Shown: positions 9,186-63,564, counted from the stretch's first letter. The stretch is DNA of 64,000 nt from a virus (IMGVR_UViG_3300042731_006881:25748-89747), one strand, 5' to 3'. Numbers and translations: made by a program. The notes: generated by a model from the sequence alone, not told the origin.

Positions 9186-9242
9186 CTGGTCACCAAACCC
9201 CGCGCTTGGCGGTCCTCGTAGTGTTCAGTTAGGTAGCGACGA

Positions 9243-10553: not shown

Positions 10554-10567
10554 GCGCGTCGCACTCG

Positions 10568-11167: not shown

Positions 11168-11182
11168 TGGCTACCTCGGTAC

Positions 11183-11605: not shown

Positions 11606-11696
11606 TTATCACCTCACTGGTGTCTAGTTAGGCAGACCATTGGGGATGGCTGGTCTGCGAGTGGCCATTGGCAGGATAGCCGAAAGAGAACAGACT

Positions 11697-13259: not shown

Positions 13260-13674
13260 CAGGCAGCACTCGCTGTGCCGTGTCTAGCATCACGTCGAGC
13301 TCTCTTTCAATCTCGACACTCACGCGCTGCGAAAACTGCTTCGGGTAGGCTCGACTCAAAACCTCCAGAGCAGCCTTTGCAGGACCGAACGAAACACCCC
13401 TGTCGTCTCCACTGAGAACCTTGCGAAGAAGACTCACCTTTGCGTCTGCACGTGCGCGGGTTACGGCCGTGAAAAACTCTCGGTGCACTCCATTTTGTTC
13501 ATTCCGACCCCGAATCATCCATTTCCTGAATGTCGAGTCGTCGATGCCGCAAACCTGTGCCGCATCCTCAATGTAGTGCCCTTCGCGAATGAGTCGCAGA
13601 AGCTTAGTCTTCGTACTGGCTGTGAGCTTAGTTGGCCTTCCAAACGGCTTGTTGTTGGCCTTCCTGGTAGCCAT
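13162..13674 (-). CDS. terS: Terminase small subunit
   Basis: GRPTKLT N-terminus with HTH (AAQVCGIDDSTFRKW); upstream of and overlapping terL. Confidence 0.8.
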   Translation of the reverse strand: MATRKANNKPFGRPTKLTASTKTKLLRLIREGHYIEDAAQVCGIDDSTFRKWMIRGRNEQNGVHREFFTAVTRARADAKVSLLRKVLSGDDRGVSFGPAKAALEVLSRAYPKQFSQRVSVEIERELDVMLDTAQRVLPDEWFLKLLDALEEKGDGEEEETGEGETPPANT

Positions 13675-13779
13675 TTTCTTCTCTCTGTTGTTTCAGATTG
13701 TATCCCCCTCAGTTTCTCTATCCCCTAGTCTTCCACCAGTGGGTGGCTGACACGGTTCGATCCAACCTGAACCGTCCTG

Positions 13780-14160
13780 CTAAAGACTACGTCCTGGGGT
13801 GGTCGGCTCGGTCGGTTGTTGGCCAAGCGGCCTGCATACTGTACGCCTTAGTTTAATGTGTGAATTCCGCAACATGACTAGCTTTGCGTCGATATCTTCT
13901 ACTCGGTCTCGTATTTCATAAATCGCCTTTGCTAACTCTCCATGATGGCGCATGTAGGAAGCGAATGCGTCCACCGAAACGTACCAGTGCCCTCGCTGTC
14001 CCCAGCGTTTCATCACTTCGATTCCAGAGTCGTCGTGGATGGCTCGAATGTGGCGTTTCAGGGTGCGTGTGGAGTGCCCCGATATCTTCGCCGCCACGCT
14101 CATCAGCAGCCACCGCCCCTGGATTCGGTTCAGGTCATCGACCAGGTTACTCACTGCCAA
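13780..14160 (-). CDS. HTH DNA-binding protein
   Basis: SVAAKISGHSTRTLKR helix-turn-helix. Confidence 0.55.
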   Translation of the reverse strand: MAVSNLVDDLNRIQGRWLLMSVAAKISGHSTRTLKRHIRAIHDDSGIEVMKRWGQRGHWYVSVDAFASYMRHHGELAKAIYEIRDRVEDIDAKLVMLRNSHIKLRRTVCRPLGQQPTEPTTPGRSL

Positions 14161-43300: not shown

Positions 43301-46300
43301 ATGATGAAACTTCCGATCGCCGAATACAGTTCTCGCATCGTCGATACAGTGAGCAAAAACGCAGTGACCATCATCACTGCTGAAACCGGGGCAGGAAAGT
43401 CCACCCAGGTACCGCAATACCTGGCCAAAGCCGGGTACCGCGTGCTATGCACGCAGCCTCGCAGAATCGCTGCTGCCACTCTGGCAGAGCGGGTTGCGGT
43501 TGAGCAGGGTTGCCGCCTAGGCGGCAAGGTTGGGTTTCGCACTGCGCGCGACAGCCAGTGCAGTGCGAAATCGCGAATCCTCTTCGTCACGGACGGTCTG
43601 GCGCTCGTTCGTGAGCTGCTGGGGGAGCGTCGGGGTTACGACGTTCTCGTTGTCGACGAAGTCCACGAGTGGTCAGAGTCGATTGAGATTCTCGTCGGAT
43701 GGGCACGACGAGAGATCGCGAATGGTGCGCAGTTCCGCCTCGTTATCATGTCCGCTACTCTCGAGGCGGAGAAGCTCGCCGCCTACTTCGACGGGGCGCC
43801 GATCATCTCGGTACCCGGCCGCTGCCACCCTGTGGAGGTGATGCAGCCGGCGAACTCAGACCATCACATCGACAAGAGGTTCCGATGGAAGGCAGACATG
43901 GCGGCTGACATCTCCAGCCTCTTCGCTAGGGGGAAGAACGTTCTCGCGTTCCTCCCAGGCAAGCGCGAGATCGCAGAACTGGGAGAGATGCTCCAAGACC
44001 TCCCAGTCGTCGAGCTCCACGGGGAGCAGTCGAGAGCAGAGCAGCGGATCGCCTTCGAAAATGGCGTCCGCAAGGTCGTCTTGGCCACCAATGTGGCACA
44101 AACCTCGATTACGATCGAGGACATCGACGCGGTGGTGGACTCCGGTCTGGTGCGCCAGATCGAGGTCAATCACGGAGTGGAGGGGCTATTTTTGCGCCCG
44201 TGCTCTGAGGCGGACTCGGCGCAACGAAAGGGACGCGCCGGGCGTACTCGTCCTGGTGTCTACGTTGACCACTGCCCGGACACTGCTTTCCGGCCTGAGT
44301 ATCAGGTCCCGGAGATCCAGCGAACGATGCTGGACCAGGTAGTTTTGCGCCTGCTCGTAGCTGGCGTTGATATCGAGCAACTGAAGCTGTACCACCAGCC
44401 AGACCCGTCAGAGGTTCGGGTGGCTAAGGAAACGCTCAGAGCTCTCGGCTGCATCGCAGCTGATGGTTCAGTGACCGACGTTGGAAGACGCATCGCGCGT
44501 CTTCCTGTCGGAACCCGTTCGGGTCGCGCCATCATCGAGGCAGAGCGTCGTGGCGTGGTCCACCGCGTCACTAGCGCTCTCGCCGTCATTGAGGCGAAGG
44601 GAATCGTGGACGACCGACGACTGGACGAAACTGGTCGTCCCGTCTGGCGCTCCCATGTGCCAGCGACGAACAGTGACCCGCTGGCGTTCGGAGAACTGCT
44701 GGACCGCTCTCACCGTCGGGAGTGGTCATCGCTCGGGCTGCACGGCAAGCGTGCTAGCGAGGCTGTCGAGATCAGAAAGCAGTTAGCGAATGCTCTTCGC
44801 GTAGTAATTCGATGCGGAGACAGAGACACTGGGTCCCGCGATGACGCGGCGAAGTGCCTCATCATCGCAGAAGGGGATCGACTCCTGGAGGGCAGCCAGA
44901 ACCGCTGGGGTGAGTTCGTCTATGGCGGTAGAAAGATCGCCAAGGAGAGCGCTGTTGGGTGCTCCCAGCGATGGATGGTCGGGACTCCGTTCGACGTCTC
45001 GACGAAGAAGGGTGGCAGCCTTGGGTTGCTCCAGATGTGTACTGAGGTTCCTGTTGAGTGGATCGTCGAGCTATTCCCCGAGCGCATCACTGAGCGCCGT
45101 AGCAGCGCTTCGTATGACGCTGAAGAGGACTCTTGCATGGTGGTCGTGACCACTCTGCTGGATGGTTCTTCACGTCTCTGCGAACGCAGGGAACCAGCTT
45201 CGGATGATGAGGCAACAGCATGCCTCGTAGCGCACATTGAGCGCCGTATTCGCGGAGGATGGGGATACCCTGTGCCGGATACCCATAGCGCGGCTCTGGA
45301 TTCCGCACACGAGTCGTATACTCGCGCACGCAAGGTCTCAGAGCGCACTGGCGTCCAGGTAGACGACGTGACAGAGCTGGTCCGGTGCGTGGTGGATGGC
45401 GCTACCCACATGGCTGACATCGACCCGGAGCTACTCCGGATTGAGTTTGCCAGCGAAGAGGATCTCCACAAGGCTATCGAGCTGCACCCAGACTCGATCA
45501 CGATTGGTGGTCACCAGTGCACGATCTCATACACGGATAGCTGTGCTTCCGTTACCGTGCCAACAGATGCGCTTTGGGCATCTCCAGACGTTGTTGAGAC
45601 TCCTGGCGGTCGAAGGATTCGGATTCGCACGAATGTCGGATGGGGTTCGTACTCTGCGGACACCGCTAGCGAGCTCCTTGCGAAGGTCGAGGAGATGCTC
45701 CGTGATGACGCAGAGCGAGAGTTCCTGCGCGAGTCTGACGACGCTCAGGAACTCACCGAGCGTCGCTACGGTCCACGCGACCAGTGGACTGGGTGGGCAG
45801 CACTGGGACGTCGCTACCGCACTCGAGATGAGGCGGTTCGGGCGCTCTATGAAGCCGCATGCGTTGATCTACCATTGCATCATGCGATGCGCGACGGAGT
45901 TCCATCGGAGGATGGAATCGAGGTAGTGCGCGCCGAGGTTGCTCGTCTCGCTTCCGAGGCCGATGCTGAGGCCGCTGAGCTGGAGCGCAACCGTTCCGAG
46001 GTCCGCCGGGTGTGCGGTGACAACATCAGCGACGAGGAGGCCGACGACGTGTTCCTCTTCGTCCGAGACGCATTTGCTCTTCGCGACGATGCTCTAGACG
46101 TACTGGAGCGTGAGGCTGACGCACCATATGGGCGCGACCGGCGAACGAGTTCGATCGAAGTAGCTTTCCCTGGCATCGACCACCGGGGACTCGACTGGAA
46201 GCAGGGTGCTAGCATTGAGCTTGTGGTCATGTGGTCTCGCTCGAAGTTCAAGCGGCCACAGCCAAAGCATTCCAAGCAGCGGAAGGCCAAGCATCAATCT

Positions 46301-46360
46301 AGTTCTAGCTCCGGATTCGGGACGCTCGGAGACATGCTACGGGAGAAAGGATTGGTATAA
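43301..46360 (+). CDS. HrpA/HrpB-like DEAH-box helicase
   Basis: AETGAGKSTQVPQ, TQPRRIAA, DEVHE, MSATL, FLPG, ATNVAQTSITI, QRKGRAGR. Confidence 0.93.
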   Translation: MMKLPIAEYSSRIVDTVSKNAVTIITAETGAGKSTQVPQYLAKAGYRVLCTQPRRIAAATLAERVAVEQGCRLGGKVGFRTARDSQCSAKSRILFVTDGLALVRELLGERRGYDVLVVDEVHEWSESIEILVGWARREIANGAQFRLVIMSATLEAEKLAAYFDGAPIISVPGRCHPVEVMQPANSDHHIDKRFRWKADMAADISSLFARGKNVLAFLPGKREIAELGEMLQDLPVVELHGEQSRAEQRIAFENGVRKVVLATNVAQTSITIEDIDAVVDSGLVRQIEVNHGVEGLFLRPCSEADSAQRKGRAGRTRPGVYVDHCPDTAFRPEYQVPEIQRTMLDQVVLRLLVAGVDIEQLKLYHQPDPSEVRVAKETLRALGCIAADGSVTDVGRRIARLPVGTRSGRAIIEAERRGVVHRVTSALAVIEAKGIVDDRRLDETGRPVWRSHVPATNSDPLAFGELLDRSHRREWSSLGLHGKRASEAVEIRKQLANALRVVIRCGDRDTGSRDDAAKCLIIAEGDRLLEGSQNRWGEFVYGGRKIAKESAVGCSQRWMVGTPFDVSTKKGGSLGLLQMCTEVPVEWIVELFPERITERRSSASYDAEEDSCMVVVTTLLDGSSRLCERREPASDDEATACLVAHIERRIRGGWGYPVPDTHSAALDSAHESYTRARKVSERTGVQVDDVTELVRCVVDGATHMADIDPELLRIEFASEEDLHKAIELHPDSITIGGHQCTISYTDSCASVTVPTDALWASPDVVETPGGRRIRIRTNVGWGSYSADTASELLAKVEEMLRDDAEREFLRESDDAQELTERRYGPRDQWTGWAALGRRYRTRDEAVRALYEAACVDLPLHHAMRDGVPSEDGIEVVRAEVARLASEADAEAAELERNRSEVRRVCGDNISDEEADDVFLFVRDAFALRDDALDVLEREADAPYGRDRRTSSIEVAFPGIDHRGLDWKQGASIELVVMWSRSKFKRPQPKHSKQRKAKHQSSSSSGFGTLGDMLREKGLV

Positions 46361-46775: not shown

Positions 46776-47354
46776 TACGTGGTGACTAGACATCTCCGTG
46801 TTGTCCGGCTTCTGGACGCTAGGAGACATGCCTGGCGAAAGGATTGGTATGAAGTTGAGCGAGGAGATTAGCAACTACGCCATCGGAGTCGCACTGTACG
46901 GACAGTGGGCTCAAAGGGCTGCTGAGCTGGAGCGCGAACGCGACGATGCGGAGAGGCGCGTTGCCGAGTTGGAGCGCGAACTTGATGCATGTAAAGACGC
47001 TAGAGGTGAGACGTGAAGCGCCTCCTCGGGTACGCCGCGCATCGGGCGAGCGTCGCGTTGCACGGGGTGGCTGAGCGTTGTCTGCGGGAGGTATATTGCG
47101 GCCAGGCACGACCTGGGTTTCGCGTCCACCGTGGAGAGGAGCGCAACTGCTTCGGCGAGCGCTATACCCCAGAGTTACCAATCACCATCTCCGACGTCGC
47201 CCCACGAATCGCCGACGCCAGCGACTACATCCGCCGCAAGTGGCAGCACGTCAGCTGGCTCGCCATGGCGAGCGCAACCGGAAGGAAGGGGAGATTCTGA
47301 TGCCGGCACCACGTGGTTACGATACATCTCCGTGTGGTCCGGCTTCTGGACGCT
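46776..47354. repeat. Dispersed direct repeat with small hairpin
   Basis: ACATCTCCGTGT(T/G)GTCCGGCTTCTGGACGCT at 46790-46820 and 47324-47354; related copy at the helicase 3' end 46310-46357. Confidence 0.8.
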
Positions 47355-47624: not shown

Positions 47625-48041
47625 GTGGTGGATAGACCTTCGTTCGAAACGATATTCATGGATCTGGCCGAGAAGCTAAGTTTGAGGAGCACCTGCAGCA
47701 GACTCAGCGTAGGTGCAGTGATCACTAGCGCGGATTTCCGGATAGTACTCGCTGTCGGGTACAATGGAAACGCCGCTGGGCTTCCAAATGCGTGTGACTC
47801 CAACACGCCTGGTGCATGCGGGTGTCTACACGCAGAGGAGAATGCTTGCATCTCGTGCACCGAACCGAGAACTACACCGAAGGTATTTTTCTGCACACAT
47901 TTGCCGTGCAAAATGTGTTCGAAAAGAATCATCAACCTGGGCGGAGTGGTTCGCGTTGTTTACCGAGAAGACTACAGACTACGCGACGGTGCTGAGATTC
48001 TTATCACATCCGGGATTGTACTGGAGCATTTCGATCGATGA
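47625..48041 (+). CDS. dCMP deaminase
   Basis: RSTCSRLSVGAVI, GYNG, HAEEN, PCKMC. Confidence 0.92.
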   Translation: MVDRPSFETIFMDLAEKLSLRSTCSRLSVGAVITSADFRIVLAVGYNGNAAGLPNACDSNTPGACGCLHAEENACISCTEPRTTPKVFFCTHLPCKMCSKRIINLGGVVRVVYREDYRLRDGAEILITSGIVLEHFDR

Positions 48042-48302: not shown

Positions 48303-49160
48303 ATGCAGGCTAGTCATGTAATCCATGCTGCAACAGCAGACTCTACTCCGTGCGACAGCTTTGGGGTTGAGATACCCAGTCGAGGATCTGGTTACTGTGC
48401 CGCATGCGGCAGGCCAGCTTACTATTCAATTGCTGATACGCTGTCGGACAATTTCACTACGGTAAAGAACGCGAGCCGAGCATGGCCATTCGGTGGCGGA
48501 GCCACATGCGCAGCATGCGTATTTGCAGCTCGCACGCTTCGCCTTCGGTGCGCAGCATGGTGGGCAACCGAGAGTAGCATTCGTTTCTGGAGGACGCGGG
48601 CAATAGTTGGACAAGAGAAGAATCCTGGTCTACACAAGCAAGCTGCAGACTGGTGGAATCCAGACAGCACTAGCCAACCAGACGGAGTGCTCGAGCTATG
48701 CGATCCGCCGGATCCTCCATTTGTTGCAGCGGTCCCACTTGCTGGAATATCCCATGGCGGAGAAACACACGTGATGCGTGCATGGTGGCCAGGCGAGAAA
48801 GAGCACCAGTCTGGCTATCTTTCCAAGCTTCAATCCAAGCACGTTGCCATCTACGCGCGTGTAGCTACGCGCCGAGAACGCTACCCGCTGCAGGTTGACG
48901 ACCTGATGGACGTCGTGGTGGACGTGGCTCTGTGGCTCGACCTGCACGATGATGCGATAGGGCTACTGGATGACATGGTCGGTTCTTGGCCGAGCGCGAA
49001 GCGCCAAGCGATACTCACGCTTAACCCACCAATTCTAGCTCCGCTCGGTCTAGTGCGAGACTGGAATAACCGCGTTCGGCGTTTGCGCCAGCACGCACAC
49101 AAAACGTGGTGGCCGCTATTCGTCGGCCTTCTGCCAGTGAGGAATGATGGAACGACCTAA
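48303..49160 (+). CDS. csf1: Type IV CRISPR large subunit Csf1 (Cas8-like)
   Basis: CAACG...NFT...CAAC Zn motifs, DPPDPPFV, QSKHV; directly upstream of csf2. Confidence 0.75.
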   Translation: MQASHVIHAATADSTPCDSFGVEIPSRGSGYCAACGRPAYYSIADTLSDNFTTVKNASRAWPFGGGATCAACVFAARTLRLRCAAWWATESSIRFWRTRAIVGQEKNPGLHKQAADWWNPDSTSQPDGVLELCDPPDPPFVAAVPLAGISHGGETHVMRAWWPGEKEHQSGYLSKLQSKHVAIYARVATRRERYPLQVDDLMDVVVDVALWLDLHDDAIGLLDDMVGSWPSAKRQAILTLNPPILAPLGLVRDWNNRVRRLRQHAHKTWWPLFVGLLPVRNDGTT

Positions 49161-50583
49161 GAAGCGAATGGATCCGAAGAAGCTCGAGCAGTCGCCAGCA
49201 ACCCAGAGAGTTCTGCTATTTTACCTAGTTCGCGGCATCATCGCAGCGGTGTCGAAGGATCGTGTCGGCGAACGGCGCTACCGGGGGCTCGCTGCTGAAC
49301 TGAAGGATGCTCTGCTCCCCATCATCGTCGCGAAGCGCCACCCGATGGGGTTCGCCAATGCGCTAGCAAATCGCTTCCGCGTCGACTTGGCCGGCGGCGA
49401 GGACAGCTACCCGGTTGAGTTGTGCACCCCAGACTGGCACATGCGCTGGGACCGCGCTGTCTCTGCTCTCGACTACAGCGCGATGCGCTCCACCATCGAG
49501 GAGAACCCAGCATTCGTTGCCCAGTTCGCAGTCGGATTCTACGAGACGGTTGACGATCTACGAGAAGACCATGAGCTGATCATTGAATACGACCTGCCAG
49601 ATGCTCCAGATGCATTCACCGTTGAGTTGCCAGGCCATGATGTTGTTCGACCACGCGAGTACACTGCAGTGTGGACACTGCTTTCGCCACTCGCGCACGG
49701 CGCAGACGAGAAATGCGGAAACGCAAAGATGTTCCGCCGCGAGCACGCATACGATGCCATAACAGGGCGGTTTCACCAAGTTCCATTCATCGCCGGGAAC
49801 GCCGTGCGCGGTGCGTGGCGCGACATGGTGATGGGTCGGTGGCTCGAGCTAATCGGCTTGAGCGAGACAGAACTCCCTCCGTCGAAGGCGCACGCACTCC
49901 TAGCTGGAGGAAGCGTTGCTGCTGGGTCCGACACCGGCGTTGCTGACCCGGTTGTCCGCGCTGAAGCGCGCGAACTGTGCCCTGCGTGGGACCTGTTTGC
50001 TGGCTGCATCGAGCAGCAGATCATGTCAGGCCGCGCCCGCGTTGGCGATGCGACGTTGGTGTGTCGAGAAAATGCCTGGCGTGTTGGTGACGCCCTGGCT
50101 CCAGGAGAGGACTCTAGGGAACTAGCATGTCGTCTTCCAGAGGCGTCAAACTGCACATCACTCAGACTCGGTACGCGCCAGGCGCACAAGGATATCCCAG
50201 AGTCTGATGGGAGCCAGATGCTGTTTAACACCGAGGTGCTCGTAGCCGGCTGTCAGATGGTACACCGCGTCGCGCTGTGTGGTCTGAGCGGAATCAGTGA
50301 CGTGACACAGGCGTGTTTATCAGACCTGCTCAGCGCCTTCGCCGAGTCTCCATACGTCGGGGCGCAAGCGTCGCATGGATTCGGAAAGGTGGCATTCGCG
50401 CCATACCAGCCGCAAGGCGGAGCACCAGAACTACAGCCACCAAGCATCTACCTGGAATACGTGGCGAGGCGACGAGAAGAAATGCGCGAGTGGGCGATGC
50501 GACCAGCAGTACAAGCGTCCACGAAGAAGGCTGCAAAGCGCGGGAAGGGGAAGCGCAGTGCCGATACTGCCAACTCTGGCTGA
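49147..50583 (+). CDS. csf2: Type IV Cas7 (Csf2) with ~165-aa N-terminal helical extension (probable Cas11 fusion)
   Basis: TLLSPLAHG, VPFIAGNAVRGAWRD, LLAGG, LFAG, GRARVG, QMLFNTEVLVAG, G-rich VGAQASHGFG. Confidence 0.88.
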   Translation: MERPKKRMDPKKLEQSPATQRVLLFYLVRGIIAAVSKDRVGERRYRGLAAELKDALLPIIVAKRHPMGFANALANRFRVDLAGGEDSYPVELCTPDWHMRWDRAVSALDYSAMRSTIEENPAFVAQFAVGFYETVDDLREDHELIIEYDLPDAPDAFTVELPGHDVVRPREYTAVWTLLSPLAHGADEKCGNAKMFRREHAYDAITGRFHQVPFIAGNAVRGAWRDMVMGRWLELIGLSETELPPSKAHALLAGGSVAAGSDTGVADPVVRAEARELCPAWDLFAGCIEQQIMSGRARVGDATLVCRENAWRVGDALAPGEDSRELACRLPEASNCTSLRLGTRQAHKDIPESDGSQMLFNTEVLVAGCQMVHRVALCGLSGISDVTQACLSDLLSAFAESPYVGAQASHGFGKVAFAPYQPQGGAPELQPPSIYLEYVARRREEMREWAMRPAVQASTKKAAKRGKGKRSADTANSG

Positions 50584-51268
50584 GCGGTGGTGGCCCAGGA
50601 GAGTGTCTCAGGTGACCGTCCGCTGCTGGATGCGGTCACCTGTCGCATGGGACACCTACGACGGACTCACTCTCGAGGGTGCGCTACAGTGTTCGGTCGT
50701 CATGATCGAGACCGGAAAGACACCTGACGACGCCTTCGCCGGCTACACCGGTCCGAAGATCGACATCCCGATTCCGATTGCTGACGTAGAGTTGAATGGC
50801 AGCAAGGTGTCGCTGTCGTCATGGGCACACCCGTGTCGCAGCGCAATCGAGGCGGTTCGAGTTCGGCGCCGTCGGCTTCGCACAGACGCCATCGGAGGAA
50901 AATCGAAGGTCCGATACAACCAGGGTCCATTCAAGTGCGCGCAGCTTCCGACGCCAATTCTCGTCACGCCGTACATTGACTTCTTCGTCGACGGGGACGT
51001 CGAGCTGCTGCGTGAGCTGCTCTCCGACTCCATAATGTTGGGCCGTTCTCGTGGTGGCGGATTGGGTTGGGTATATGGCTGCGAGTTCCTTCCGCGAGAT
51101 GGCGACGTCCTGGTTCGCGGAGGAGCCTTGACCAGAACCGTTCCTGCTGGAAGCGTATCCGACGTTGACCCGTCAAAATACATTGAACGAGAAGCGACGA
51201 CGCGAGCACCGTACTGGCATCGGGCGACACGCCAGATGTGCTGGGTTCCGGTGATGAGGGAATCATGA
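50558..51268 (+). CDS. csf3: Type IV Cas5 (Csf3)
   Basis: MRSPVA, LTLEGAL, FFVDGD, LGRSRGGGLGWV, RAPYWH; GTG start 50558 overlaps csf2. Confidence 0.82.
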   Translation: MPILPTLAERWWPRRVSQVTVRCWMRSPVAWDTYDGLTLEGALQCSVVMIETGKTPDDAFAGYTGPKIDIPIPIADVELNGSKVSLSSWAHPCRSAIEAVRVRRRRLRTDAIGGKSKVRYNQGPFKCAQLPTPILVTPYIDFFVDGDVELLRELLSDSIMLGRSRGGGLGWVYGCEFLPRDGDVLVRGGALTRTVPAGSVSDVDPSKYIEREATTRAPYWHRATRQMCWVPVMRES

Positions 51269-51867
51269 AATCGGCAAGCAAGTCTGCCCTCGCTGCCCTT
51301 CGAAAGTGCGTCGATTCAAGCCTCAGCGAGTCCGCTCGGGTGGAGCTGTACAACGCCATGTCAACGCTGCTTGGGGAGCTGGTAGCCGACATCTCCCCGG
51401 ACCCTGCCGCGTCACCTCGTCTTCTCGCCACCGACACCGTAGAAGGGAATGACTACAACCCGAACAGGGTAGCAGACCCAGAACTAGATCTACTGGAACA
51501 AAGCATGCGCGCCGACGGCATCACGATGGCTGTCGTGGTGATGCCGGACGGAACTGTAGTAGACGGCTTTCACCGTCGAACTGTCGCTGGCGCAAGGCTT
51601 GGTCGCCGATACATCCCATGCTCCGTGATCGACCGACCGATCGCAGACCGCATGGCTTCAACCGTGCGCCACAACAGGGCACGCGGAAAGCACCAGGTGG
51701 AACTTATGGCTCACCTGGTGCGAGGCATGCTCGAACTCGGGTGGGATGACGAGAAGATCGCTAACGCGCTCGGTATGAGCGTTGAGGAATTGCTCCGGCT
51801 GAAGCAGATGGTCGGGGCTGCCAGGCTGCTCGCAGGAGAGCAGTACACCAGGACGTGGGACCCGTGA
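51265..51867 (+). CDS. ParB/Srx-domain IbrB-like protein
   Basis: NDYNPNRVA..ELDLL..S...DG, VVDGFHR, RMASTVRHNRARGKH. Confidence 0.88.
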   Translation: MKSASKSALAALRKCVDSSLSESARVELYNAMSTLLGELVADISPDPAASPRLLATDTVEGNDYNPNRVADPELDLLEQSMRADGITMAVVVMPDGTVVDGFHRRTVAGARLGRRYIPCSVIDRPIADRMASTVRHNRARGKHQVELMAHLVRGMLELGWDDEKIANALGMSVEELLRLKQMVGAARLLAGEQYTRTWDP

Positions 51868-52634
51868 TCGTACTGTGTGCTGACACCGCAGCAGCTCCGG
51901 TTCGAGCACGGCGTGCGCTGTGCGTTCGTCACAAATCATATGAGGCTCCGAACAGCTGCCGCAACATCGTTCTGTGGGACGACTTTCAGGGCTCTTGGAA
52001 GTCACAGTTACACGGGTTTGACACGCTTGTGGTAGTCGGACTGAGCCGCATCATCACGCCTTCGAACCGAGTCAAGGTCGGACAGGTCCTGATGCGCCCC
52101 ATCGACGGCGTTCGGAGAATCTCGGTTGACCGCACGATGTTCATCTCAGAGCCGTGGCGCCTATTCTGGCACTTCAGCTGCATCCGACAGCCGTACCAAG
52201 AGCTTACGGACAGCTATCTTGCGGAGACCCGCTACAAGCAGTCTCTCGATGGATTCCGTGAGGATCCGTTTTCGCTCGCCGAGATCAAGGCGTACTCAGA
52301 CGGAAAAATTCAGGCGCATGGACATCCGTTCTTCGAGTCGTTCGAGGTGACTCGAGTGCCCGTCTCGCAGGAGTGGCACCGTCGGTATGCTGCAGAGAAG
52401 GCGTCAGCGTTCGATGAGGAGCACACACCATCTGCCATCATCAAGCGGCTGGAAGCGGTATCGAGAGAGGCGCTGAAGGATCGCAAGATCCCAACACCAT
52501 CTCGGCTTTTTGCTAACCGTCACCCCGTCGCAATTCAGTCTGACCTGAAGGTGGACGATTTCCTCGTCGGGCGCCTTCGTTACCTAGTTGAGCTCACCAA
52601 TGGCATCCACGAAGCATTTCAACCGCGAGCGTGA
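51864..52634 (+). CDS. Hypothetical protein between IbrB-like and IbrA-like genes
   Basis: GTGA-coupled to the IbrB-like gene and overlaps the IbrA-like start. Confidence 0.6.
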   Translation: MIVLCADTAAAPVRARRALCVRHKSYEAPNSCRNIVLWDDFQGSWKSQLHGFDTLVVVGLSRIITPSNRVKVGQVLMRPIDGVRRISVDRTMFISEPWRLFWHFSCIRQPYQELTDSYLAETRYKQSLDGFREDPFSLAEIKAYSDGKIQAHGHPFFESFEVTRVPVSQEWHRRYAAEKASAFDEEHTPSAIIKRLEAVSREALKDRKIPTPSRLFANRHPVAIQSDLKVDDFLVGRLRYLVELTNGIHEAFQPRA

Positions 52635-53685
52635 GGATGTTCTTACAGCAGCTCGTAGGCGCATGTCGATGGTGTTCGACGAGTTCAAACACGTTGTCGT
52701 TAGCGTTTCAGGAGGGAAGGACAGTTCGGTGATCCGTGAGCTGGCGATCGATGAAGCATGCCGCCGAGGCCGCCGCGTATCGATGTTCTTCCTTGACCAA
52801 GAAGCGGAGTACGCAAGCACTGTGTCGATCATGCGCGACTGGATGCACGACACTCGTATAGACCCGATGTGGTACCAGGTTCCAATTCGCATGACCAACG
52901 CAACCAGCCATGCAGAGTACTGGCTGCGCGCTTGGTGGGATGGTGAAGAGTGGATGCGTGAGAAGGACCCAAACGCGATTACCGCTATCGGAGAGAAATA
53001 CCCAACTCGATTCTATGACTTCTTCGAGTGGATGGAGATGCGATCACCGACATCCACAGCCTTCGTGGTTGGGATGCGCGCTCGTGAGTCGCTCAATCGC
53101 CACCGCTCCACAACGAAAGTTGCTGGGTACAGTGACTGGACTTGGAGCACGAAAACGAAGAACCCAGGAGTATTCCGTGTCTACCCGATATACGACTGGT
53201 TTTTTGGAGACGTTTGGAAATTCATCGCAGACAACGGGATATCGTACAACACGCACTATGATAGGATGTTCGCCAAGCATGGCGCAGACGAGAAACGGAT
53301 GCGAGTGTCGAACCTCATCCACGAGCAGGCGTTTCAATGCCTGGCTGATCTTCAGGAGTTCGAACCAGACACATATGATCTACTTATAAAGAGGCTTGGT
53401 GGAGTTCACGCAGCGGCTCTCTATGCTCGCGAGAAGAGTATTTATTCAGCAGGCGAACTCCCGGATACGTTTCCATCGTGGTTGACCTACCGCGACTACC
53501 TTCTAGCCAGCACCCCATGCGACAAAATCGATCGCTTTCGAAAGCGCTTTTCGAAGCAGCCACAAGACGAAGAGACGTACCGCCAGCAGTGCCGTCAAAT
53601 TCTACGCAACGACTGGGAGAACAACGTCCCGGTTCCAAACACGAGAAAGGAAAGGTTGAGGGAGGTATGGTGGGAGAGATTGTAG
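52600..53685 (+). CDS. IbrA-like PAPS reductase family protein (DUF3440)
   Basis: DVLTAARRR, SVSGGKDS, FLDQEAEY, GMRARESLNR, YPIYDW...DVW, MRVS. Confidence 0.9.
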   Translation: MASTKHFNREREDVLTAARRRMSMVFDEFKHVVVSVSGGKDSSVIRELAIDEACRRGRRVSMFFLDQEAEYASTVSIMRDWMHDTRIDPMWYQVPIRMTNATSHAEYWLRAWWDGEEWMREKDPNAITAIGEKYPTRFYDFFEWMEMRSPTSTAFVVGMRARESLNRHRSTTKVAGYSDWTWSTKTKNPGVFRVYPIYDWFFGDVWKFIADNGISYNTHYDRMFAKHGADEKRMRVSNLIHEQAFQCLADLQEFEPDTYDLLIKRLGGVHAAALYAREKSIYSAGELPDTFPSWLTYRDYLLASTPCDKIDRFRKRFSKQPQDEETYRQQCRQILRNDWENNVPVPNTRKERLREVWWERL

Positions 53686-54323
53686 CGTGGAGCGACGTTG
53701 CCATCGTCATCCCGACGATGGAGGAACGGTCGCATCTGCTGTGTCAGCTTGTGGCAGAGCTGCAGCGCGAGTGTCGAGGAGCACAAATTGCCGTCCACTA
53801 CCACGAGCCAGGATCATCGGCGCGGGTAGACTTCCCAGAGACCATCGATCTCGGAATCACAACGGACCGCCGCTGGATCCTGCAGGTCGAGGACGATGTG
53901 TGGCTGTGCCCTGAATTCGGAGATCGGTGCCTGGGCGGAATCCGATACGCTGAGGCGTCCGACGTCTCAGCCGTGACATTCTTCAGTCGTTCGAAGCGCG
54001 ACGTAGAAATGCTATCAATCGGAAAAACTTGGCGCACTCAGTCGCCAGCGTCTTTCTGCATGATGCAGTGCGTGTCGCTGAAAACCGACGCACTACGAGG
54101 GTTTTCTGCATGGGCTCCGACCTGGTACAACGATCCTCGCAATAGCCACCACCAGCACGCCGCAGACCTACTGCTCGGTGCGTGGCTGTCGCGCAACAAG
54201 CGCAAAATGCTGGCTCACATCCCATCATTGGTGCAGCACAGAAAGGTGAAATCGACACTTACTGGTCACCGTGGAGCCAGGCAATCTGATACGTACAGTA
54301 TAGCGTTCGGTGAGGCCCCATGA
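53667..54323 (+). CDS. GT-A fold glycosyltransferase-like protein
   Basis: IVIPT, LQVEDD (DxD-like), PSLVQH. Confidence 0.7.
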   Translation: MVGEIVAWSDVAIVIPTMEERSHLLCQLVAELQRECRGAQIAVHYHEPGSSARVDFPETIDLGITTDRRWILQVEDDVWLCPEFGDRCLGGIRYAEASDVSAVTFFSRSKRDVEMLSIGKTWRTQSPASFCMMQCVSLKTDALRGFSAWAPTWYNDPRNSHHQHAADLLLGAWLSRNKRKMLAHIPSLVQHRKVKSTLTGHRGARQSDTYSIAFGEAP

Positions 54324-54661
54324 AGATCAACGATCTGGTCAACGCTGCCGCTTCCGAGGGGTGGCGTGTGCGTCCGCCAGAGTTGGAGAAACACCCGATC
54401 CTCAGTGATAGAGGGGATGTTGTAGGTTTTTTTTGCCCTCATTCAGCAGGCAGAGGAAGGTGGCGTGTTGGACCAATCTATGTGCACCCATCACACCGCG
54501 GTCGCGGGCTCGCTGCGCAGGCATACTCTTGGGCTGACGGAGTTCCTCTGGTAGCGTACACGCACGTCGACAACAAGGCGTCCGCTCGGGTGCACGAAAA
54601 GCTCGGCTTCGTCCGCTGGTACACCACACGCTCAGGCGGGCAGTACTGGAAACGTGACTGA
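54320..54661 (+). CDS. GNAT acetyltransferase
   Basis: IYVHPSHRGRGLA, NKASARVHEKLGF. Confidence 0.9.
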   Translation: MKINDLVNAAASEGWRVRPPELEKHPILSDRGDVVGFFCPHSAGRGRWRVGPIYVHPSHRGRGLAAQAYSWADGVPLVAYTHVDNKASARVHEKLGFVRWYTTRSGGQYWKRD

Positions 54662-55460
54662 GCCACGCATCACCGACCACGACCGCCGCATCTGGAGGTC
54701 GTGGTCGGTGACTGCGCGCATGCACTCGCGAACTCGCCATCACAAGCGGCGAGTTGAGAAGGCTCGCGCAGTGGTCTCCGATTTCATCGACCGCGATCCG
54801 TCCGCGATCGTCATGTGGAGCGGAGGGAAGGACTCAACTGCGATGACACATCTCGCGCTTGGTGTCTGTCCCACCATAGATGTCATCAGCGAAAAGGACG
54901 ACCTAGACTATCCTGGTGAGCGTGACTATGTAGAGTGCCTAGCGCGTAAGTGGGTCGCTCAACTCACCATAGTTGAGCCTGCTGTGTCCCCAGCAGAGTG
55001 GATGCGCAAGAACGGACTCTCACTCGCTCCTGGAGACGATATCCACGGAAGGGCTGCAGCAATGAGTAAGGATTGCTTCTATAGCGTCGTCGAGGGTGAA
55101 ACAGCAGGGCGCGGTATCATGCTAGGTCTACGCGCTGAGGAGTCCAAGGGTCGCACCGCAAACAGAGCTACCCGTGGTCTCATCTACCACGCTCGCAATC
55201 AGTTGGTAGCGACTCCTCTTGCTGACTGGTCAGGGCTGGACGTGTACGCATACTGTGAGTCGCATGGGATTGAGCTGCTTCCACTCTATCAGTGCGTATC
55301 GCTCATGCACGCGCGTGAGCCGTGGAGACTGCGAAAATCGTGGTGGGTTCCTGGTGCTCATGGGATGACGGGATCAGTCCAGTGGCTCAGACACTACTAC
55401 CCGTCACTGTACTCCAAGCTTGTTCAGTGGTCGCCATCGTCACAATCGCTAGGTGCATGA
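54654..55460 (+). CDS. CysH-like PAPS reductase family protein (type IV-B associated)
   Basis: WSGGKDS PP-loop, GLRAEESKGR, PLADWSGLDVYAY, WLRHYYP. Confidence 0.85.
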   Translation: MTEPRITDHDRRIWRSWSVTARMHSRTRHHKRRVEKARAVVSDFIDRDPSAIVMWSGGKDSTAMTHLALGVCPTIDVISEKDDLDYPGERDYVECLARKWVAQLTIVEPAVSPAEWMRKNGLSLAPGDDIHGRAAAMSKDCFYSVVEGETAGRGIMLGLRAEESKGRTANRATRGLIYHARNQLVATPLADWSGLDVYAYCESHGIELLPLYQCVSLMHAREPWRLRKSWWVPGAHGMTGSVQWLRHYYPSLYSKLVQWSPSSQSLGA

Positions 55461-55466
55461 TCCTGC

Positions 55467-55495
55467 TTGCGTCCGTCGTTCGCCGTGACCACAAT
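55467..55495 (+). promoter_or_regulatory. Promoter of the RHH gene
   Basis: TTGCGT-17-CACAAT; shares CTTGCGTCCGTC with the promoter at 55712. Confidence 0.55.
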
Positions 55496-55711: not shown

Positions 55712-55739
55712 TTGCGTCCGTCAGCGGACGGTGTATAAT
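55712..55739 (+). promoter_or_regulatory. Promoter with palindrome, leaderless ORF downstream
   Basis: TTGCGT-16-TATAAT, CGTCCG-TCAG-CGGACG; ATG 55747 lies 7 nt after the -10. Confidence 0.65.
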
Positions 55740-56992: not shown

Positions 56993-57325
56993 ATGAAGCA
57001 ACGAACAAATGACGAGCTCTTGGCGCTCCGCGCTGAGATCAACTCGGAGCTAGCCCGACGCGCTGGCACCGGGATTAAAGTCTGGAGCGATCGCGACGGG
57101 CGCGTCGCGGACACGCCCGACGGCGGAGCAATGCTGAAAGTTCGATGGCGCACGGGGTCATCGCACACTTGGTATCAGAATGTAGTGGCCGCTGAAGCGG
57201 GGCTCGTCGCGCTGGCAGACAAGCACAGGATAGTACCGAACAGAAGTCTAGACGGCAGATTTGCCGTCGATCTAACCTGCGACGGATGTGCCTCATTTGA
57301 GGCATGGGTGGAGGATTGGTCGTGA
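56993..57325 (+). CDS. Hypothetical protein
   Basis: RBS GGAGG. Confidence 0.5.
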   Translation: MKQRTNDELLALRAEINSELARRAGTGIKVWSDRDGRVADTPDGGAMLKVRWRTGSSHTWYQNVVAAEAGLVALADKHRIVPNRSLDGRFAVDLTCDGCASFEAWVEDWS

Positions 57326-57780
57326 TGACAACGATAGGAGAGACAATGAACATGATCCAAAAGCGAGTCGTTCGTGACCTCGCGGCTCACGGCCTCTACG
57401 AGGAGGCGCGCCGAGGACTTGCGCGGGACCTCGTGCCAATACTCGCCGCTGATCAGGATCCCCAGGTTCGTGCTCAGGTCTCCAGAACCTGTTCGGATGC
57501 GTACAACGAAGACGTGAGCGCGATCCCTCTCGAGGTACTGAGGACGCTCGCATCCGACCCAGACCCTGGTGTCCGGGAGGCGGTTGCTTATAGCAACCAT
57601 CCTGGGATATGTTTCGATCTTCTCGCCGACCCTTGTTCTGATGTCCGCGCAGGGGTCGCGTATTGGGGTCCGCGTTCCTGCGTGCGCAAGCTACGCAGGG
57701 ACAAGGACCCGGAGGTCCAGAAGTATGTCGCCTGGCGCGACAATGAGCCAAAATGGGATCTCTCACGGAGGTGGAGATGA
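57325..57780 (+). CDS. HEAT-like repeat protein
   Basis: LAADQDPQVR, LASDPDPGVR, LLADPCSDVR, RRDKDPEVQ; start uncertain. Confidence 0.7.
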   Translation: MTTIGETMNMIQKRVVRDLAAHGLYEEARRGLARDLVPILAADQDPQVRAQVSRTCSDAYNEDVSAIPLEVLRTLASDPDPGVREAVAYSNHPGICFDLLADPCSDVRAGVAYWGPRSCVRKLRRDKDPEVQKYVAWRDNEPKWDLSRRWR

Positions 57781-60319: not shown

Positions 60320-60825
60320 TAGTCATGGAAGACGGAGTGGTGTGTTCAGCGCACACCAACCGCAGCGGTGATACGGTTGACGTGCGACCGCTGAAGGCCG
60401 TCTGGTGGAAGATGGTTGTCCGTGACGACTACGGTGCAGAGTGGCCGATTAGTGAGCGAGAAATCGCTCGCGAAGAGTGCAATCTAAATTGGGACCGTGT
60501 AACATATGAGGGGACCGTCGATGTCGATGGTGTCCCTCACGCAGTTGTTACTTACACGCGGAAAGAGGTCATCATCGGCTACGATAGAGAGCAGCGTACC
60601 GAAATCCTCGCTCGTGCGGTAGCGAGTCACCAGGAATCAACCACAGATGAGGCGCGATGGGAGGAATTCGTTGCAGATCCAAAATTAACAAATAAGGAAC
60701 GCGGGCGCTTTAAGCGGGTTCGAGGCAACGCCGCTAGATGGCTACTCGAGCGGCGCGGGTTCGCCTGGTCATATGAACGCGAGACTGCAGTCCGCGCTCT
60801 AGTCTGTAGATTGGGTGGAACATGA
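60304..60825 (+). CDS. Hypothetical protein coupled to the Cas12-like gene
   Basis: Stop codon overlaps the ATG at 60822. Confidence 0.55.
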   Translation: MQRFLVVMEDGVVCSAHTNRSGDTVDVRPLKAVWWKMVVRDDYGAEWPISEREIAREECNLNWDRVTYEGTVDVDGVPHAVVTYTRKEVIIGYDREQRTEILARAVASHQESTTDEARWEEFVADPKLTNKERGRFKRVRGNAARWLLERRGFAWSYERETAVRALVCRLGGT

Positions 60826-62780
60826 GCCCCCGTGTCTATTCATTCGGTTGTTCACCACTAGACACAGACTCTATGGAGTCTGTGCAGGGACAGATACAGG
60901 CCTACCACGACCACTACAATGGTCTGGTAGACATCGAGAACGCTCGACGTCTGGCATACGACGCGGCGCGAAGAAGTGCGGTCCCAGGTCTCGTTGAGGC
61001 AGAGGAAGAGATCGCTCCTCTCGAAGCTGAGCTTGCGGCAGCAACCGAAGCTGCAAACCTTGCCGCCCGCACCGGTAAAGGGCCTTCCCCGAAGCGCTGC
61101 CCCGAGGTTGCGCGAATCAAGAAAGCGCTGAAAGCACCGCGAGCACGTGCACGCTCCCTTCGAGCTACCGGCAACGAGATGCTGGCTCCGGGTCATGCCC
61201 GCAAAGAAGAGCTAGACTGCGCCAAGCGTGGAGTTGGAGCGGACGGGAAAAAGCTCGCCGTGGCTCCGAGGATAGCTGAGCGACTCAACGAAGAGGTGAC
61301 AGCTGAGCTTTTGGCTGACGATTCACTCAGCGAGTTCTATCGTGCCGTCGTGGCTCTCGAGGCTGATGCCTTGGCGAAGAGCAAAGCGCTGCGAGGGACA
61401 ACCGGGTGCACCGCCGGAACCTATCTCATGGCCGAGCGGGCATTTGATTCCGCTCGGAAGAAACGCGCGGCTGGACTCCTCCATCGACGCAGATGGGACG
61501 GCGGAGGGAAGGTTGCCGTACAGCTTCGCAAACTCTCTACAGAGGGGCTTTTCCAACAGGCGTCAACGATGCTCCAGGTAGATCGACTTCCATCGAATAC
61601 CTGGGATGATCGGGGGCGCCCCCGAAGAAAACCTAGAAAATACTGCGAAACGCGAGCACGCATTCGATGCGGCTCAGACGGACGCATGCCGGTCTGGGCT
61701 GAGCTTCGAGTCTGGATGCACCAGCCTCTCCCAGCAAATACGTCGATCACATGGGCGTGGCTTCAGGTGCGACGCCACGGAGGAGAGACAACGTACAGCC
61801 TCCAGTTGACACTCGATGGAGACCTGTCTAGGACTGCATCGGGACAGGGAGCATGTGCCATCGATTTCGGTTGGCGCCATATCCCAGACCACGGGCTGCG
61901 TGTCGGATTTCTCCGAGGAGAGGATGGGCATAGGCAAGAGCTGCTGATCCCAGAGCAGCTAGTAAAGAAGCTCGTGCATCCCGACGCGCTACGAAGCGTT
62001 ACGGACACTGTTTTTGCTGACGCCAAGTCGGCATTCCGCGACCTGATGGATGCGGACGACACTCCAGAATGGGTCCGCGAAGAGGGTCAGTACCACGCCC
62101 AGTGGAGGTCTCCTCGTAGGCTCGCCACGATCGTGTGGCGTCGCGTATCTGAAATCAAAAACTCCCAGTCGCTTTGGCACGACTGGGAGCGAGAAAGAAA
62201 GGCTTCAAGGATGGACCTCCTGGACACTCGAGAGGTGATCGAGTCGTGGCTGGCATCCAGAGGCGTTTCCGGGTCAGAGCTCACGTGGCTCTATCTCGAG
62301 TGGTGGCGCAAGAAAAACAAGCATATCTACATGTGGGAGTCATCTCTCCGACTGAAGGCTATCGCTGCTCGGAAAGAGATTTTCCGATGCTGGGCAAAGC
62401 AGATTGCTACTCGATACTCAGACGTCGTGTTGGAAGATTTCGATCTTCGCAACGTGTCCCGCCTTCGGGACGGAGCATCTGAACAGGAGAAGCGGGCAAA
62501 CCACTACAGAACCCTGGCGTGTGTTAGCACGCTCCGAGACGCGATATACAACGCATGCGGAAAGAGCCGCGTGCACAAAATCAACGCGGCGGGCTCAACG
62601 TACACATGCCACGTGTGTGGACATGACTGTCGAGATGACGATACATGGGCTCCAGAACGCAGCGTCACCCACGAGTGTGGCCAGTGCCGCACCGAGTGGG
62701 ATCAGGACGAAAATGCCAGTATCAATATGATCTCCTTCATGCGCGAGAGGTCCGGTGGTGACGCTGAACAAACTCGTTAA
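60822..62780 (+). CDS. cas12m: Type V-M (Cas12m-like) RuvC effector
   Basis: HRRRWDGGGKVAVQL, RIRCGSDGRMPVWAELRVWMHQPLP, AIDFGWR, QWRSPRRLA, VVLED, CHVC/CGQC, WDQDENA match the Cas12m/TnpB layout; array directly downstream. Confidence 0.85.
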   Translation: MSPRVYSFGCSPLDTDSMESVQGQIQAYHDHYNGLVDIENARRLAYDAARRSAVPGLVEAEEEIAPLEAELAAATEAANLAARTGKGPSPKRCPEVARIKKALKAPRARARSLRATGNEMLAPGHARKEELDCAKRGVGADGKKLAVAPRIAERLNEEVTAELLADDSLSEFYRAVVALEADALAKSKALRGTTGCTAGTYLMAERAFDSARKKRAAGLLHRRRWDGGGKVAVQLRKLSTEGLFQQASTMLQVDRLPSNTWDDRGRPRRKPRKYCETRARIRCGSDGRMPVWAELRVWMHQPLPANTSITWAWLQVRRHGGETTYSLQLTLDGDLSRTASGQGACAIDFGWRHIPDHGLRVGFLRGEDGHRQELLIPEQLVKKLVHPDALRSVTDTVFADAKSAFRDLMDADDTPEWVREEGQYHAQWRSPRRLATIVWRRVSEIKNSQSLWHDWERERKASRMDLLDTREVIESWLASRGVSGSELTWLYLEWWRKKNKHIYMWESSLRLKAIAARKEIFRCWAKQIATRYSDVVLEDFDLRNVSRLRDGASEQEKRANHYRTLACVSTLRDAIYNACGKSRVHKINAAGSTYTCHVCGHDCRDDDTWAPERSVTHECGQCRTEWDQDENASINMISFMRERSGGDAEQTR

Positions 62781-62840: not shown

Positions 62841-62881
62841 ACGCTTCATGTCATTGGAAACTTACCGTTTCTGATTGGGCG

Positions 62882-63544
62882 AATCTACGCCTTGCCCAGA
62901 GGCCTCGTGTCTGGGACCCTGGCCCCTGCTGAGTACGTGAACGATGACGTCAACATCCACGCCTTGCCCATAGGCCTCGTGTCTGGGACTGTGCGGGGCC
63001 GAAGTCACCCCGTGGGTACCGGTCGCATCCACGCCTTGCCCAGAGGCCTCGTGTCTGGGACCGTTAGCGCGCCATTGCCAGTCAGAGTGTTCGGACGACA
63101 GCAACGCCTTGCCCGGAGGCCTCGTGTCTGGGACCGTGCCGCCATCAACCTGTCGCTCAGCTCTCCCATCATCCTCATCCATGCCTTGCCTGGAGGCTTC
63201 GTTTCTGGGACCTGGCTCGGCCGTGTGTGATTGATGGCGATGACTCCATCCATGCCTTGCCCGGGGGCTTCATACCAGGGACCCGAACTGGTGGATGGAC
63301 ATCCATGCCTTGCCCAGAGGCCTCGTGTCTGGGACAGACCGGAACCAGTGTTGCCACGGACCTACACGATCATGCCTTGCTCGGGGGATTCGTTCCCGGG
63401 ACCAGTCCGGTTGTCAGCACTCTGAACGCCGCCACCGCGACAGCAACGCCTTGCCCGGAGGCCTCGTGTCTGGGACCCATCGCTTCGGCCCTCACGATCC
63501 ATTTCGATTCACCACGCCTTGCCCTGGGGCTTAGTGCCAGGGAC
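62882..63544 (+). CRISPR. CRISPR array, 10 repeats of 36 bp and 9 spacers
   Basis: Consensus CATCCACGCCTTGCCCAGAGGCCTCGTGTCTGGGAC starting at 62882, 62954, 63026, 63099, 63176, 63247, 63300, 63367, 63441 and 63509; spacers 36, 36, 37, 41, 35, 17, 31, 38 and 32 bp. Confidence 0.93.
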
Positions 63545-63564
63545 GTGGATAGAGTTCGCGTGTG

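Follow-up and report, generated by a model that had tools for sequence, protein, structure and literature searches.

The window analyzed here is a 64-kb stretch covering bases 25748-89747 of the 89,747-base IMG/VR virus record IMGVR_UViG_3300042731_006881, and its + strand carries, at window positions 48303-55460, an operon that joins a type IV CRISPR-Cas effector to a cassette of IbrA/ParB-type enzymes. The operon contains nine genes, in the order csf1, csf2, csf3, a ParB/IbrB-like gene, a gene without any family, ibrA, a gene for a GT-A-fold glycosyltransferase-like (GT) protein, a GNAT acetyltransferase gene and a CysH-like gene. Adjacent genes are translationally coupled, with stop and start codons that overlap by 4-26 nucleotides (nt) or almost touch; for example, the csf3 stop codon is overlapped by the ATG of the ParB-like gene, and the GNAT start codon overlaps the GT stop codon (ATGA). 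A motif resembling a ribosome-binding site, GAAAGGA, precedes the csf1 ATG. An earlier annotation made from the nucleotide sequence alone (the sequence-only reading) had described this locus as a single coupled gene string, and its gene identities, span and coupling are confirmed; its gene count was given as eight, while nine genes were listed and nine are present.

The three csf genes stand side by side and encode type IV effector proteins. The csf1 gene (48303-49160) encodes a Cas8-like large subunit of 285 amino acids (aa) with two CxxC pairs, which matches the PADLOC profile Csf1_0_IV with an expect value (E) of 1.7e-10; Csf1 homologs are found upstream of a long csf2 in 21 further distinct loci. 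The csf2 open reading frame (ORF; 49144-50583) encodes 479 aa, of which only residues 174-449 match the typeIV_Cas7 hidden Markov model (HMM) of PADLOC (E 6e-42), so that a Csf2 (Cas7) core (49660-50583) is distinguished from an N-terminal domain lying outside the match (49144-49659). The csf3 gene (Cas5), which has alternative starts at 50558 and 50603 and ends at 51268, matches typeIV_Cas5 of PADLOC (E 2e-19) and TIGR03116 (E 1.5e-4). The identities of the csf genes come from the PADLOC profiles, their NCBIfam matches being weak and Pfam giving none.

A profile built from 27 homologs of Csf2 and compared with the PDB finds the type IV-B Csf2 of 7jhy as its best solved relative (E 2.1e-17), whereas the type IV-A Csf2 of 8rc2 is reached at E 0.32, in agreement with the type IV-B assignment of the sequence-only reading. 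The whole 89.7-kb genome contains no Cas1, no PF10040-type Cas6 and no DinG-type Helicase_C_2 domain in searches with PF01867, PF10040 and PF13307 that were positive in control genomes (Cas10 and RecD were not searched separately). The sequence-only reading had recognized no cas6, dinG, cas1/2 or adjacent array; Cas1, Cas6 and DinG are indeed absent genome-wide and no array occurs at the operon, but that reading overlooked a ten-repeat array 7.4 kb downstream. With the subtype IV-B reference locus of Mycobacterium sp. JS623 (PDB 7JHY; csf1-cas11-csf2-csf3 with a cysH-like gene), the operon shares csf1, csf2, csf3 and a cysH-like PP-loop gene, as well as a location on a mobile element and the lack of adaptation genes, Cas6 and DinG/RecD (RecD with the limit just given); the operon and its flanks also have no array, although one lies 7.4 kb downstream. 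Judged by its Csf2 profile and its cysH-like gene, and by the lack of Cas6, helicase and adaptation genes, the operon is type IV-B-like. It differs from the reference in having five additional genes between csf3 and cysH, in being carried by a 90-kb phage whose genome has direct terminal repeats and includes a Cas12-like gene and an array, and in lacking a separate cas11, a defining feature of IV-B: there is no ORF between csf1 and csf2.

In place of a separate cas11, the window Csf2 bears its N-terminal domain of about 170 residues, which sits in the cas11 slot and is kept in relatives, where R45, E52, P59, R77, W102, R115, F128 and A129 are conserved. The ORF directly upstream of csf2 in classical loci of the survey described below is a verified type IV Cas11 (E 1e-18 to 2e-38 in the three tested), and by its position the domain may be a fused Cas11. 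Comparisons with Cas11 returned no clear match: the Cas11 HMM of PADLOC matches none of five N-terminal pieces from loci of the window type, an hhalign comparison of the domain with Cas11 (34 candidate ORFs) gives probabilities of 14-23%, the PDB profile search returns nothing for this part of the protein, and stand-alone short homologs were not found. A second, unrelated N-terminal extension of Csf2, of about 110-130 residues, occurs in the viral loci L012, L013, L016, L018/L019 and L024; the Cas11 HMM does not match it in the two cases tested.

Five proteins are encoded between csf3 and the CysH-like gene. The first (51265-51867) is a ParB/Srx-fold, IbrB-like protein of 200 aa with a DGFHR motif, which matches the ParB-like family phrog_2159 (E 1.6e-54) and whose gene, like that of the small ParB/Srx-fold partner in an IbrA/IbrB module, is close to ibrA, one gene away. 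D100, G101, H103 and R104 (DGxHR) are invariant in it; it has no Pfam match, ParB_N included, at a threshold of 0.01. The third (52600-53685) is an IbrA-like PP-loop ATP pyrophosphatase with an SGGKDS motif, in which the PAPS_reduct domain (PF01507, E 1.4e-14) is followed by DUF3440 (PF11922, E 7.9e-8), as is characteristic of IbrA; it matches phrog_2302 with E 1.4e-85. Between the two lies the gene of a 256-aa protein (51864-52634) that has no family match and no counterpart in Pfam, the PDB, the ESM Atlas or isolated phages. It has 70 representatives among 1.84 billion proteins. It is restricted to the window, the related locus L002 and the L003 group, a subclade in which it always stands between parB and ibrA. 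In the sister subclade, the slot before ibrA is taken by a 286-aa protein, here called y, which shows a weak collinear likeness to the family-less protein (hhalign probability 57%, E 1e-4).

The GT protein (53667-54323; 218 aa) was recognized from motifs in a homolog alignment and from its ESM Atlas model. An alignment of 24 homologs contains an N-terminal (V/I)AIPT..R strand, an EDD motif in which D77 is invariant and E75 and D76 occur in at least 90% of sequences, and a C-terminal PSLVQH. The Atlas model of the exact window sequence has a predicted template-modeling score of 0.87, and its nearest family-bearing clusters lie in the range of template-modeling (TM) scores 0.75-0.80 (Glyco_transf_25, TM 0.75; mannosyltransferase, TM 0.77; NTP_transf_3, TM 0.79). 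One of the 24 homologs reaches Glyco_tranf_2_3 (PF13641) at E 3.8e-4 and two reach Glycos_transf_2 at 0.1 or worse; the profile retrieves only chance-level rows from the PDB and nothing from isolated phages. The protein likely has a GT-A-type nucleotide-sugar fold and is a putative transferase. It is followed by a short GNAT acetyltransferase (54320-54661; 113 aa) that retains the acetyl-CoA-binding core; its matches to PF00583 (Acetyltransf_1, E 4.3e-9) and to PF13508 (E 1.1e-6) pass the cut-offs.

The last gene (54654-55460) encodes a CysH-like PP-loop protein of the CasCysH type with a WSGGKDS motif (PF01507, PAPS_reduct, E 1.4e-12); SGGKDS is intact in both PP-loop proteins of the operon. 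At least 85% of 70 Csf-linked homologs of the CysH-like protein have retained S56, G58, K59, D60 and S61, and eight of nine that were aligned have the cysteine of a 'Y(Q/R)C' motif, which is not equated with the catalytic motif. Of 27 distinct loci with a long Csf2, 19 have a member of this family linked to their csf genes, as do 31 of 40 with a short one.

Relatives of the operon were collected through the long Csf2, which has 95 homolog clusters at 90% identity, all metagenomic and one bearing the source label of a metagenome-assembled genome of Longimicrobiales; tblastn gave no Csf2 match in isolated phages. Besides L002, pattern scans yielded 54 viral loci and 24 metagenome loci, while a scan of genome contigs yielded no relative. 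Profiles of the nine proteins were searched against all ORFs of these loci, and loci whose Csf2 proteins were at least 90% identical were collapsed, leaving 67 distinct loci. Twenty-two are of the window type, sharing the N-terminal domain of the window Csf2 and having a strong Csf1 match; five carry the second extension (L012, L013, L016, L018, L024); and 40 have a short Csf2 with a separate cas11, although three of these are contig-end fragments and two, L065 and L068, resemble cut window-type genes.

An IbrA gene and a ParB gene lie within 12 kb of csf2 in eight of the 22 window-type loci, or in seven of the ten that offer at least 6 kb of sequence downstream. These eight are the window itself, L002, the provirus represented by L003/L004/L060, L006, L007/L076, L064, L070 and L079. 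In L002 (27-53% amino-acid identity) as in the L003/L004/L060 provirus, all nine genes are linked but arranged differently: the order csf3-parB-unk-ibrA-GT-GNAT-cysH of the window (unk being the family-less gene) becomes csf3-X-GT-GNAT-parB-unk-ibrA-cysH in L002 and csf3-cysH-parB-unk-ibrA-GT-GNAT in L003. The sister subclade carries a different flavor of the cassette, with a methyltransferase (MTase) in place of the GT gene (MTase-GNAT-y-IbrA-ParB instead of GT-GNAT-unk-IbrA-ParB), the order in L006, L007 and L079 being csf3-cas6like-MTase-(GNAT)-y-ibrA-parB-cysH.

A ninth case, L034, is found outside the window type. At positions 8920-13979 of that locus, an IbrA-ParB pair lies in an operon of classical IV-B order (csf1-like, cas11, csf2, IbrA, ParB, cysH, csf3) whose genes all overlap; its IbrA contains DUF3440 (E 9e-25) and its ParB contains ParB_N (E 6.7e-10). 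In a tree of 20 IbrA rows, the eight window-type proteins fall into one clade together with a single long-branch row from a Flavobacterium phage (Shimodaira-Hasegawa-like approximate likelihood ratio test, SH-aLRT, 99), and the IbrA of L034 is placed far outside this clade with a branch support of 100. Thus, the pairing of IbrA and ParB with Csf arose at least twice. Across these nine loci the cassette keeps a constant place, contacting cysH directly in eight; L070 is the exception, with a gap of about 1 kb. The ParB gene near csf2 in L030 is an ordinary partition ParB with a helix-turn-helix domain and was not counted as part of a cassette, and the similar ParB match in L026 was likewise left out of the counts. 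The sequence-only reading had staked its proposal on linkage of ibrAB to csf genes in other genomes and had placed the extra enzymes functionally with Csf; the linkage exists, and its recurrence, L034 included, lends support to that grouping.

A Cas6-like gene adjoins the csf genes in 12 window-type loci (L005, L006, L007, L008, L061, L066-L071 and L078). Such genes are rare in IV-B, where 12 instances are given in the relevant passage of Pinilla-Redondo et al. (PMC7038947). The copies of L006 and L007 match PF10040 at about 1e-5, and the gene is absent from the window genome. No array was found within 10 kb of the Cas6-like loci, nor in four whole records.

We consider the best explanation to be that the locus is a phage type IV-B-like Csf operon with its CysH gene, that an IbrAB cassette was taken in between csf3 and cysH, and that the two modules work together, a reading held tentatively and at somewhat less than an even chance; any single chemistry assigned to the cassette would be far less probable than that. 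As a possible mechanism, the Csf ribonucleoprotein, assembled on non-CRISPR or borrowed RNA, would provide the binding to nucleic acid, where adenylation by the two PP-loop enzymes would activate one position. DNA would be a more likely substrate than RNA because of the ParB partner, which may load or activate the PP-loop enzymes on duplex DNA; a sugar and an acetyl group could afterwards be attached by the GT and GNAT proteins. The system would probably serve to protect the phage DNA, or else to mark or silence DNA of the host or of rivals.

Parts of this scheme have precedents. A IV-B complex assembles on heterogeneous non-CRISPR RNA, as described in a passage of PMC7937560, and phage ParB homologs are reported in PMC13229309 to switch on, when the DNA is duplex, a dioxygenase that modifies DNA bases. 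In those ParB-dependent thymine dioxygenase systems (5mYOX176/ParB176), as in the window, a ParB homolog stands beside a nucleic-acid-modifying enzyme and hypermodification genes of the glycosyltransferase type, and the ParB is needed for activity on duplex DNA according to the same paper; in the window, however, the enzyme is a predicted PP-loop ATPase rather than a dioxygenase. Enzymes of the phosphoadenosine phosphosulfate (PAPS) reductase family are, according to the literature, part of DNA phosphorothioation as well as of BREX type 4. Both Dnd (DndB, ParB-like; DndC, PAPS-reductase-like) and BREX type 4 (BrxP) resemble the window in pairing a ParB-fold protein with a PP-loop enzyme of this family on DNA, and weak PADLOC matches reach DndC (E 4.8e-6), BrxP (E 1.4e-5) and also DndA. 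The likeness is one of logic and not of membership, since none of the nine genes is DndA, DndD, DndE, a cysteine desulfurase or PglZ. Assignment to Dnd phosphorothioation was rejected, TIGR03183 scoring 22 bits against a cut-off of 290 and the DndA/D/E set not being present.

Several observations weigh against cooperation of the two modules. Three window-type loci with at least 6 kb downstream (L008, L009 and L061) have room for the IbrA-ParB pair and lack it, and so do 44 of the 45 Csf loci of other types, L034 being the sole exception. The GT gene and the family-less gene accompany Csf in only three distinct loci, and the GT assignment itself comes from fold and motifs, the window protein having no Pfam match. 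The eight window-type cases may represent one inherited event, so that independent support would amount to two joinings, not nine, and the IbrA tree behind this count was built by a quick method with SH-aLRT support only and an arbitrary root. The substrate, the guide RNA and the contacts between the proteins are hypothetical, and so is the RNA-directed modification suggested in the sequence-only reading. The cassette also has a life of its own: 13 of 18 viral loci with a distant GT homolog (26-32% identity, not de-duplicated) carry IbrA and ParB, and none of them has csf genes.

The last of these points leads to the main rival, according to which two unrelated accessory modules came to share a variable region and a transcript by descent and by chance insertion, and do not cooperate. 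Close GT homologs (45-55% identity) are confined to Csf contigs found before. Elsewhere the cassette is self-sufficient, and the IbrAB-GT-GNAT block of the sequence-only reading is not peculiar to Csf. It is a common free-standing phage cassette, with IbrA homologs in 188 of 50,697 isolated phage records. In the two GT-IbrA-ParB loci without csf that were tested, the large terminase gene comes next. In Microbacterium phage Hendrix, the right end of the genome (L102, 95117-97757) holds genes for a methyltransferase, an acetyltransferase and an IbrA-like protein annotated 'adenylyltransferase', and the left end (483-559) a ParB-like gene, which is the cassette flavor of L006/L007 without Csf. 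Arthrobacter phage Salgado has genes for ParB, a 'PAPs reductase', a ParB-like protein and a methyltransferase ahead of the terminase, and an E. coli phage has an annotated IbrA-IbrB. IbrA/IbrB of E. coli prophages and the pairs of ParB and 'PAPS reductase/adenylyltransferase' of actinophages and of Flavobacterium and Streptococcus phages share with the window a PP-loop protein with DUF3440 beside a small ParB/Srx-fold protein, often accompanied by GNAT, MTase or GT. The window pair differs from these free pairs in being split by the family-less gene and in lying inside a cas operon, while the others lie beside the terminase gene or at genome ends. To our knowledge, no biochemical function is established for the IbrA/IbrB pair in either form.

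Mere adjacency is also consistent with the 14 of 22 window-type loci, many of them short contigs, in which no IbrAB was found, and the single clade of window-type IbrA fits one old insertion. It is weakened by L034, whose classical IV-B operon has a second and very distant IbrA-ParB pair, among overlapping genes, between its csf2 and cysH; by a linkage that outlasts changes of gene order at 27-57% identity; and by the near-constant contact of the cassette with cysH. The cassette lives independently and is missing from most Csf loci, which sustains adjacency without cooperation as the most serious rival, although we consider it rather unlikely.

A more specific form of cooperation is less probable still. 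The Csf ribonucleoprotein would target or scaffold a nucleic-acid hypermodification machine that works in several steps: the two PP-loop enzymes adenylate a base or backbone position where the Csf-RNA complex keeps the site open, ParB is the clamp that loads them on DNA, and the GT and acetyltransferase finish the mark. We give this version only a small chance; if true, it would mean that a phage carries out RNA-guided or RNA-scaffolded epigenetic marking, and IV-B would have its first assigned function.

Two further rivals would dispense with DNA modification, and both appear improbable. Under the first, Csf is loaded with CRISPR RNAs (crRNAs) of the array downstream, processed by a Cas12-like protein or by host enzymes, and silences host or rival DNA by binding, the cassette being irrelevant. 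The array (62879-63545) consists of ten diverged repeats of 36-40 nt at spacings of 53-77 nt and adjoins the gene of a 652-aa Cas12-like protein (60822-62780, + strand) with a Cas12f1-like TNB domain (PF07282, E 7.1e-8), the two lying 7.4 kb downstream of the operon on the same strand. A figure legend in PMC12669027 describes a plasmid region in which IV-B occurs with an inactivated Cas12b3 and a mini-array. Against such a supply of guides, the genome has no Cas6, the Cas12-like protein was not found in nine related virus records, four of which are 94-100% complete, and a repeat scan that does detect the window array finds none in the records of four relatives. No array lies within the operon or its flanks, and a model of the repeat recovers the ten array copies only, with no stray copy near the operon. 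Because the Cas12-like gene and the array are missing in relatives and no repeat is found near the operon, we do not think that the Csf module depends on this array, although borrowing from it is conceivable.

Under the second, about equally doubtful, the target is RNA: a Csf filament would soak up crRNAs or small RNAs of the host as a counter-defense, and the PP-loop enzymes would modify RNA as tRNA-modifying enzymes do, DNA not being the target. Many PP-loop enzymes adenylate RNA bases, which speaks for such a role. The RNA content of the solved IV-B complex (PMC7937560, in the passage cited above) also favors it, and sequestration of crRNAs is discussed in a section of Pinilla-Redondo et al. 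(PMC7038947), where the sponge idea is nevertheless judged unlikely by the authors themselves. DNA is indicated instead by the ParB-fold partner, by the variants of the cassette that carry an MTase and by its placement beside the terminase gene. Finally, a role of both PAPS-reductase-family genes in sulfur assimilation, suggested by their PF01507 matches and their PHROGs category ('auxiliary metabolic gene'), is hardly credible, given that all NCBIfam scores for CysH, CysD and adenosine phosphosulfate reductase lie far below cut-off (23-30 bits against 154-254 for the best CysH-type models), that both genes are embedded in a cas operon, and that CasCysH lacks catalytic cysteine chemistry according to a passage in the review by Taylor et al. 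(PMC8175902).

The virus record that contains the operon has direct terminal repeats of 70 bases and a completeness rating of 100%. The sole public DNA run with the window stretch is a wetland metagenome, possibly its source, and no RNA run is listed. Long genes on the - strand occupy positions 1-34 kb of the window, and 36-64 kb forms a rightward block of replication and accessory genes that includes a YqaJ exonuclease, an SMC-like ATPase, a 1019-aa DEAD/Helicase_C/HA2 helicase and a deoxycytidylate (dCMP) deaminase. The helicase gene (43301-46360, + strand) lies 2 kb upstream of the operon and shows no linkage to csf genes in the related loci searched. The dCMP deaminase, which the sequence-only reading had placed just upstream of csf1, is present at 47625-48041 (PF00383, E 3.2e-17); one 75-aa ORF separates it from csf1, and it is distinct from the preceding 160-aa ORF. 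In the related loci searched the deaminase is likewise not linked to csf, and the whole genome contains no gene of the ThyA or ThyX families. A pre-replicative route to hydroxymethyl-pyrimidines, in which the deaminase would feed the cassette, was dropped on these two grounds. Upstream of the deaminase gene, a 30-nt direct repeat with a one-base mismatch occurs at 46791-46820 and 47325-47354, 534 nt apart; none of 100 shuffled sequences gave any such repeat.

Directly past the cysH stop codon, the box TTGCGTCCGTC occurs twice (55467-55477 and 55712-55722), at a distance of 245 nt. In both places it makes up the -35 part of what resembles a promoter, and in the second a TATAAT follows 17 nt further on. 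After each copy comes a small ORF, the first of which resembles a ribbon-helix-helix protein. The boxes may mark the end of the csf transcript; the box alone is within chance expectation, 28 of 100 shuffles reaching three matches. A promoter scan gave no promoter-like site, terminator-like sites were at chance level, and an Rfam search of the window returned no family. Among small genes without a known role downstream of the operon is one for a 158-aa HEAT-repeat protein (57304-57780; PF02985, E 2.6e-8; PF13646, E 9.3e-8).

Phage-borne IV-B systems and the link of IV-B to CysH are already in print, in the passages of PMC7038947 that deal with them, and passages of PMC8175902 and PMC7038947 leave the function of IV-B unassigned and name the CysH-like partner as the key unknown. 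Our literature search found no paper joining IV-B with ParB or IbrA, although supplementary tables outside the search may list such loci. The word 'ParB' occurs zero times in PMC8175902, in PMC12669027 and in the Shmakov preprint, and none of the literature retrieved with 'DUF3440' concerns CRISPR by title or abstract.

Among the common CRISPR-Cas subtypes, type IV-B alone has no assigned function, and the pairing found in the window gives a testable clue to it. A second PP-loop enzyme, a ParB partner and group-transfer enzymes have been recruited beside the CysH gene at least twice. This recruitment points to a chemistry that modifies nucleic acids and singles out a few genes for joint expression and assay; it also ties the widespread and unexplained IbrA/ParB cassette of phages to a nucleic-acid-binding machine.

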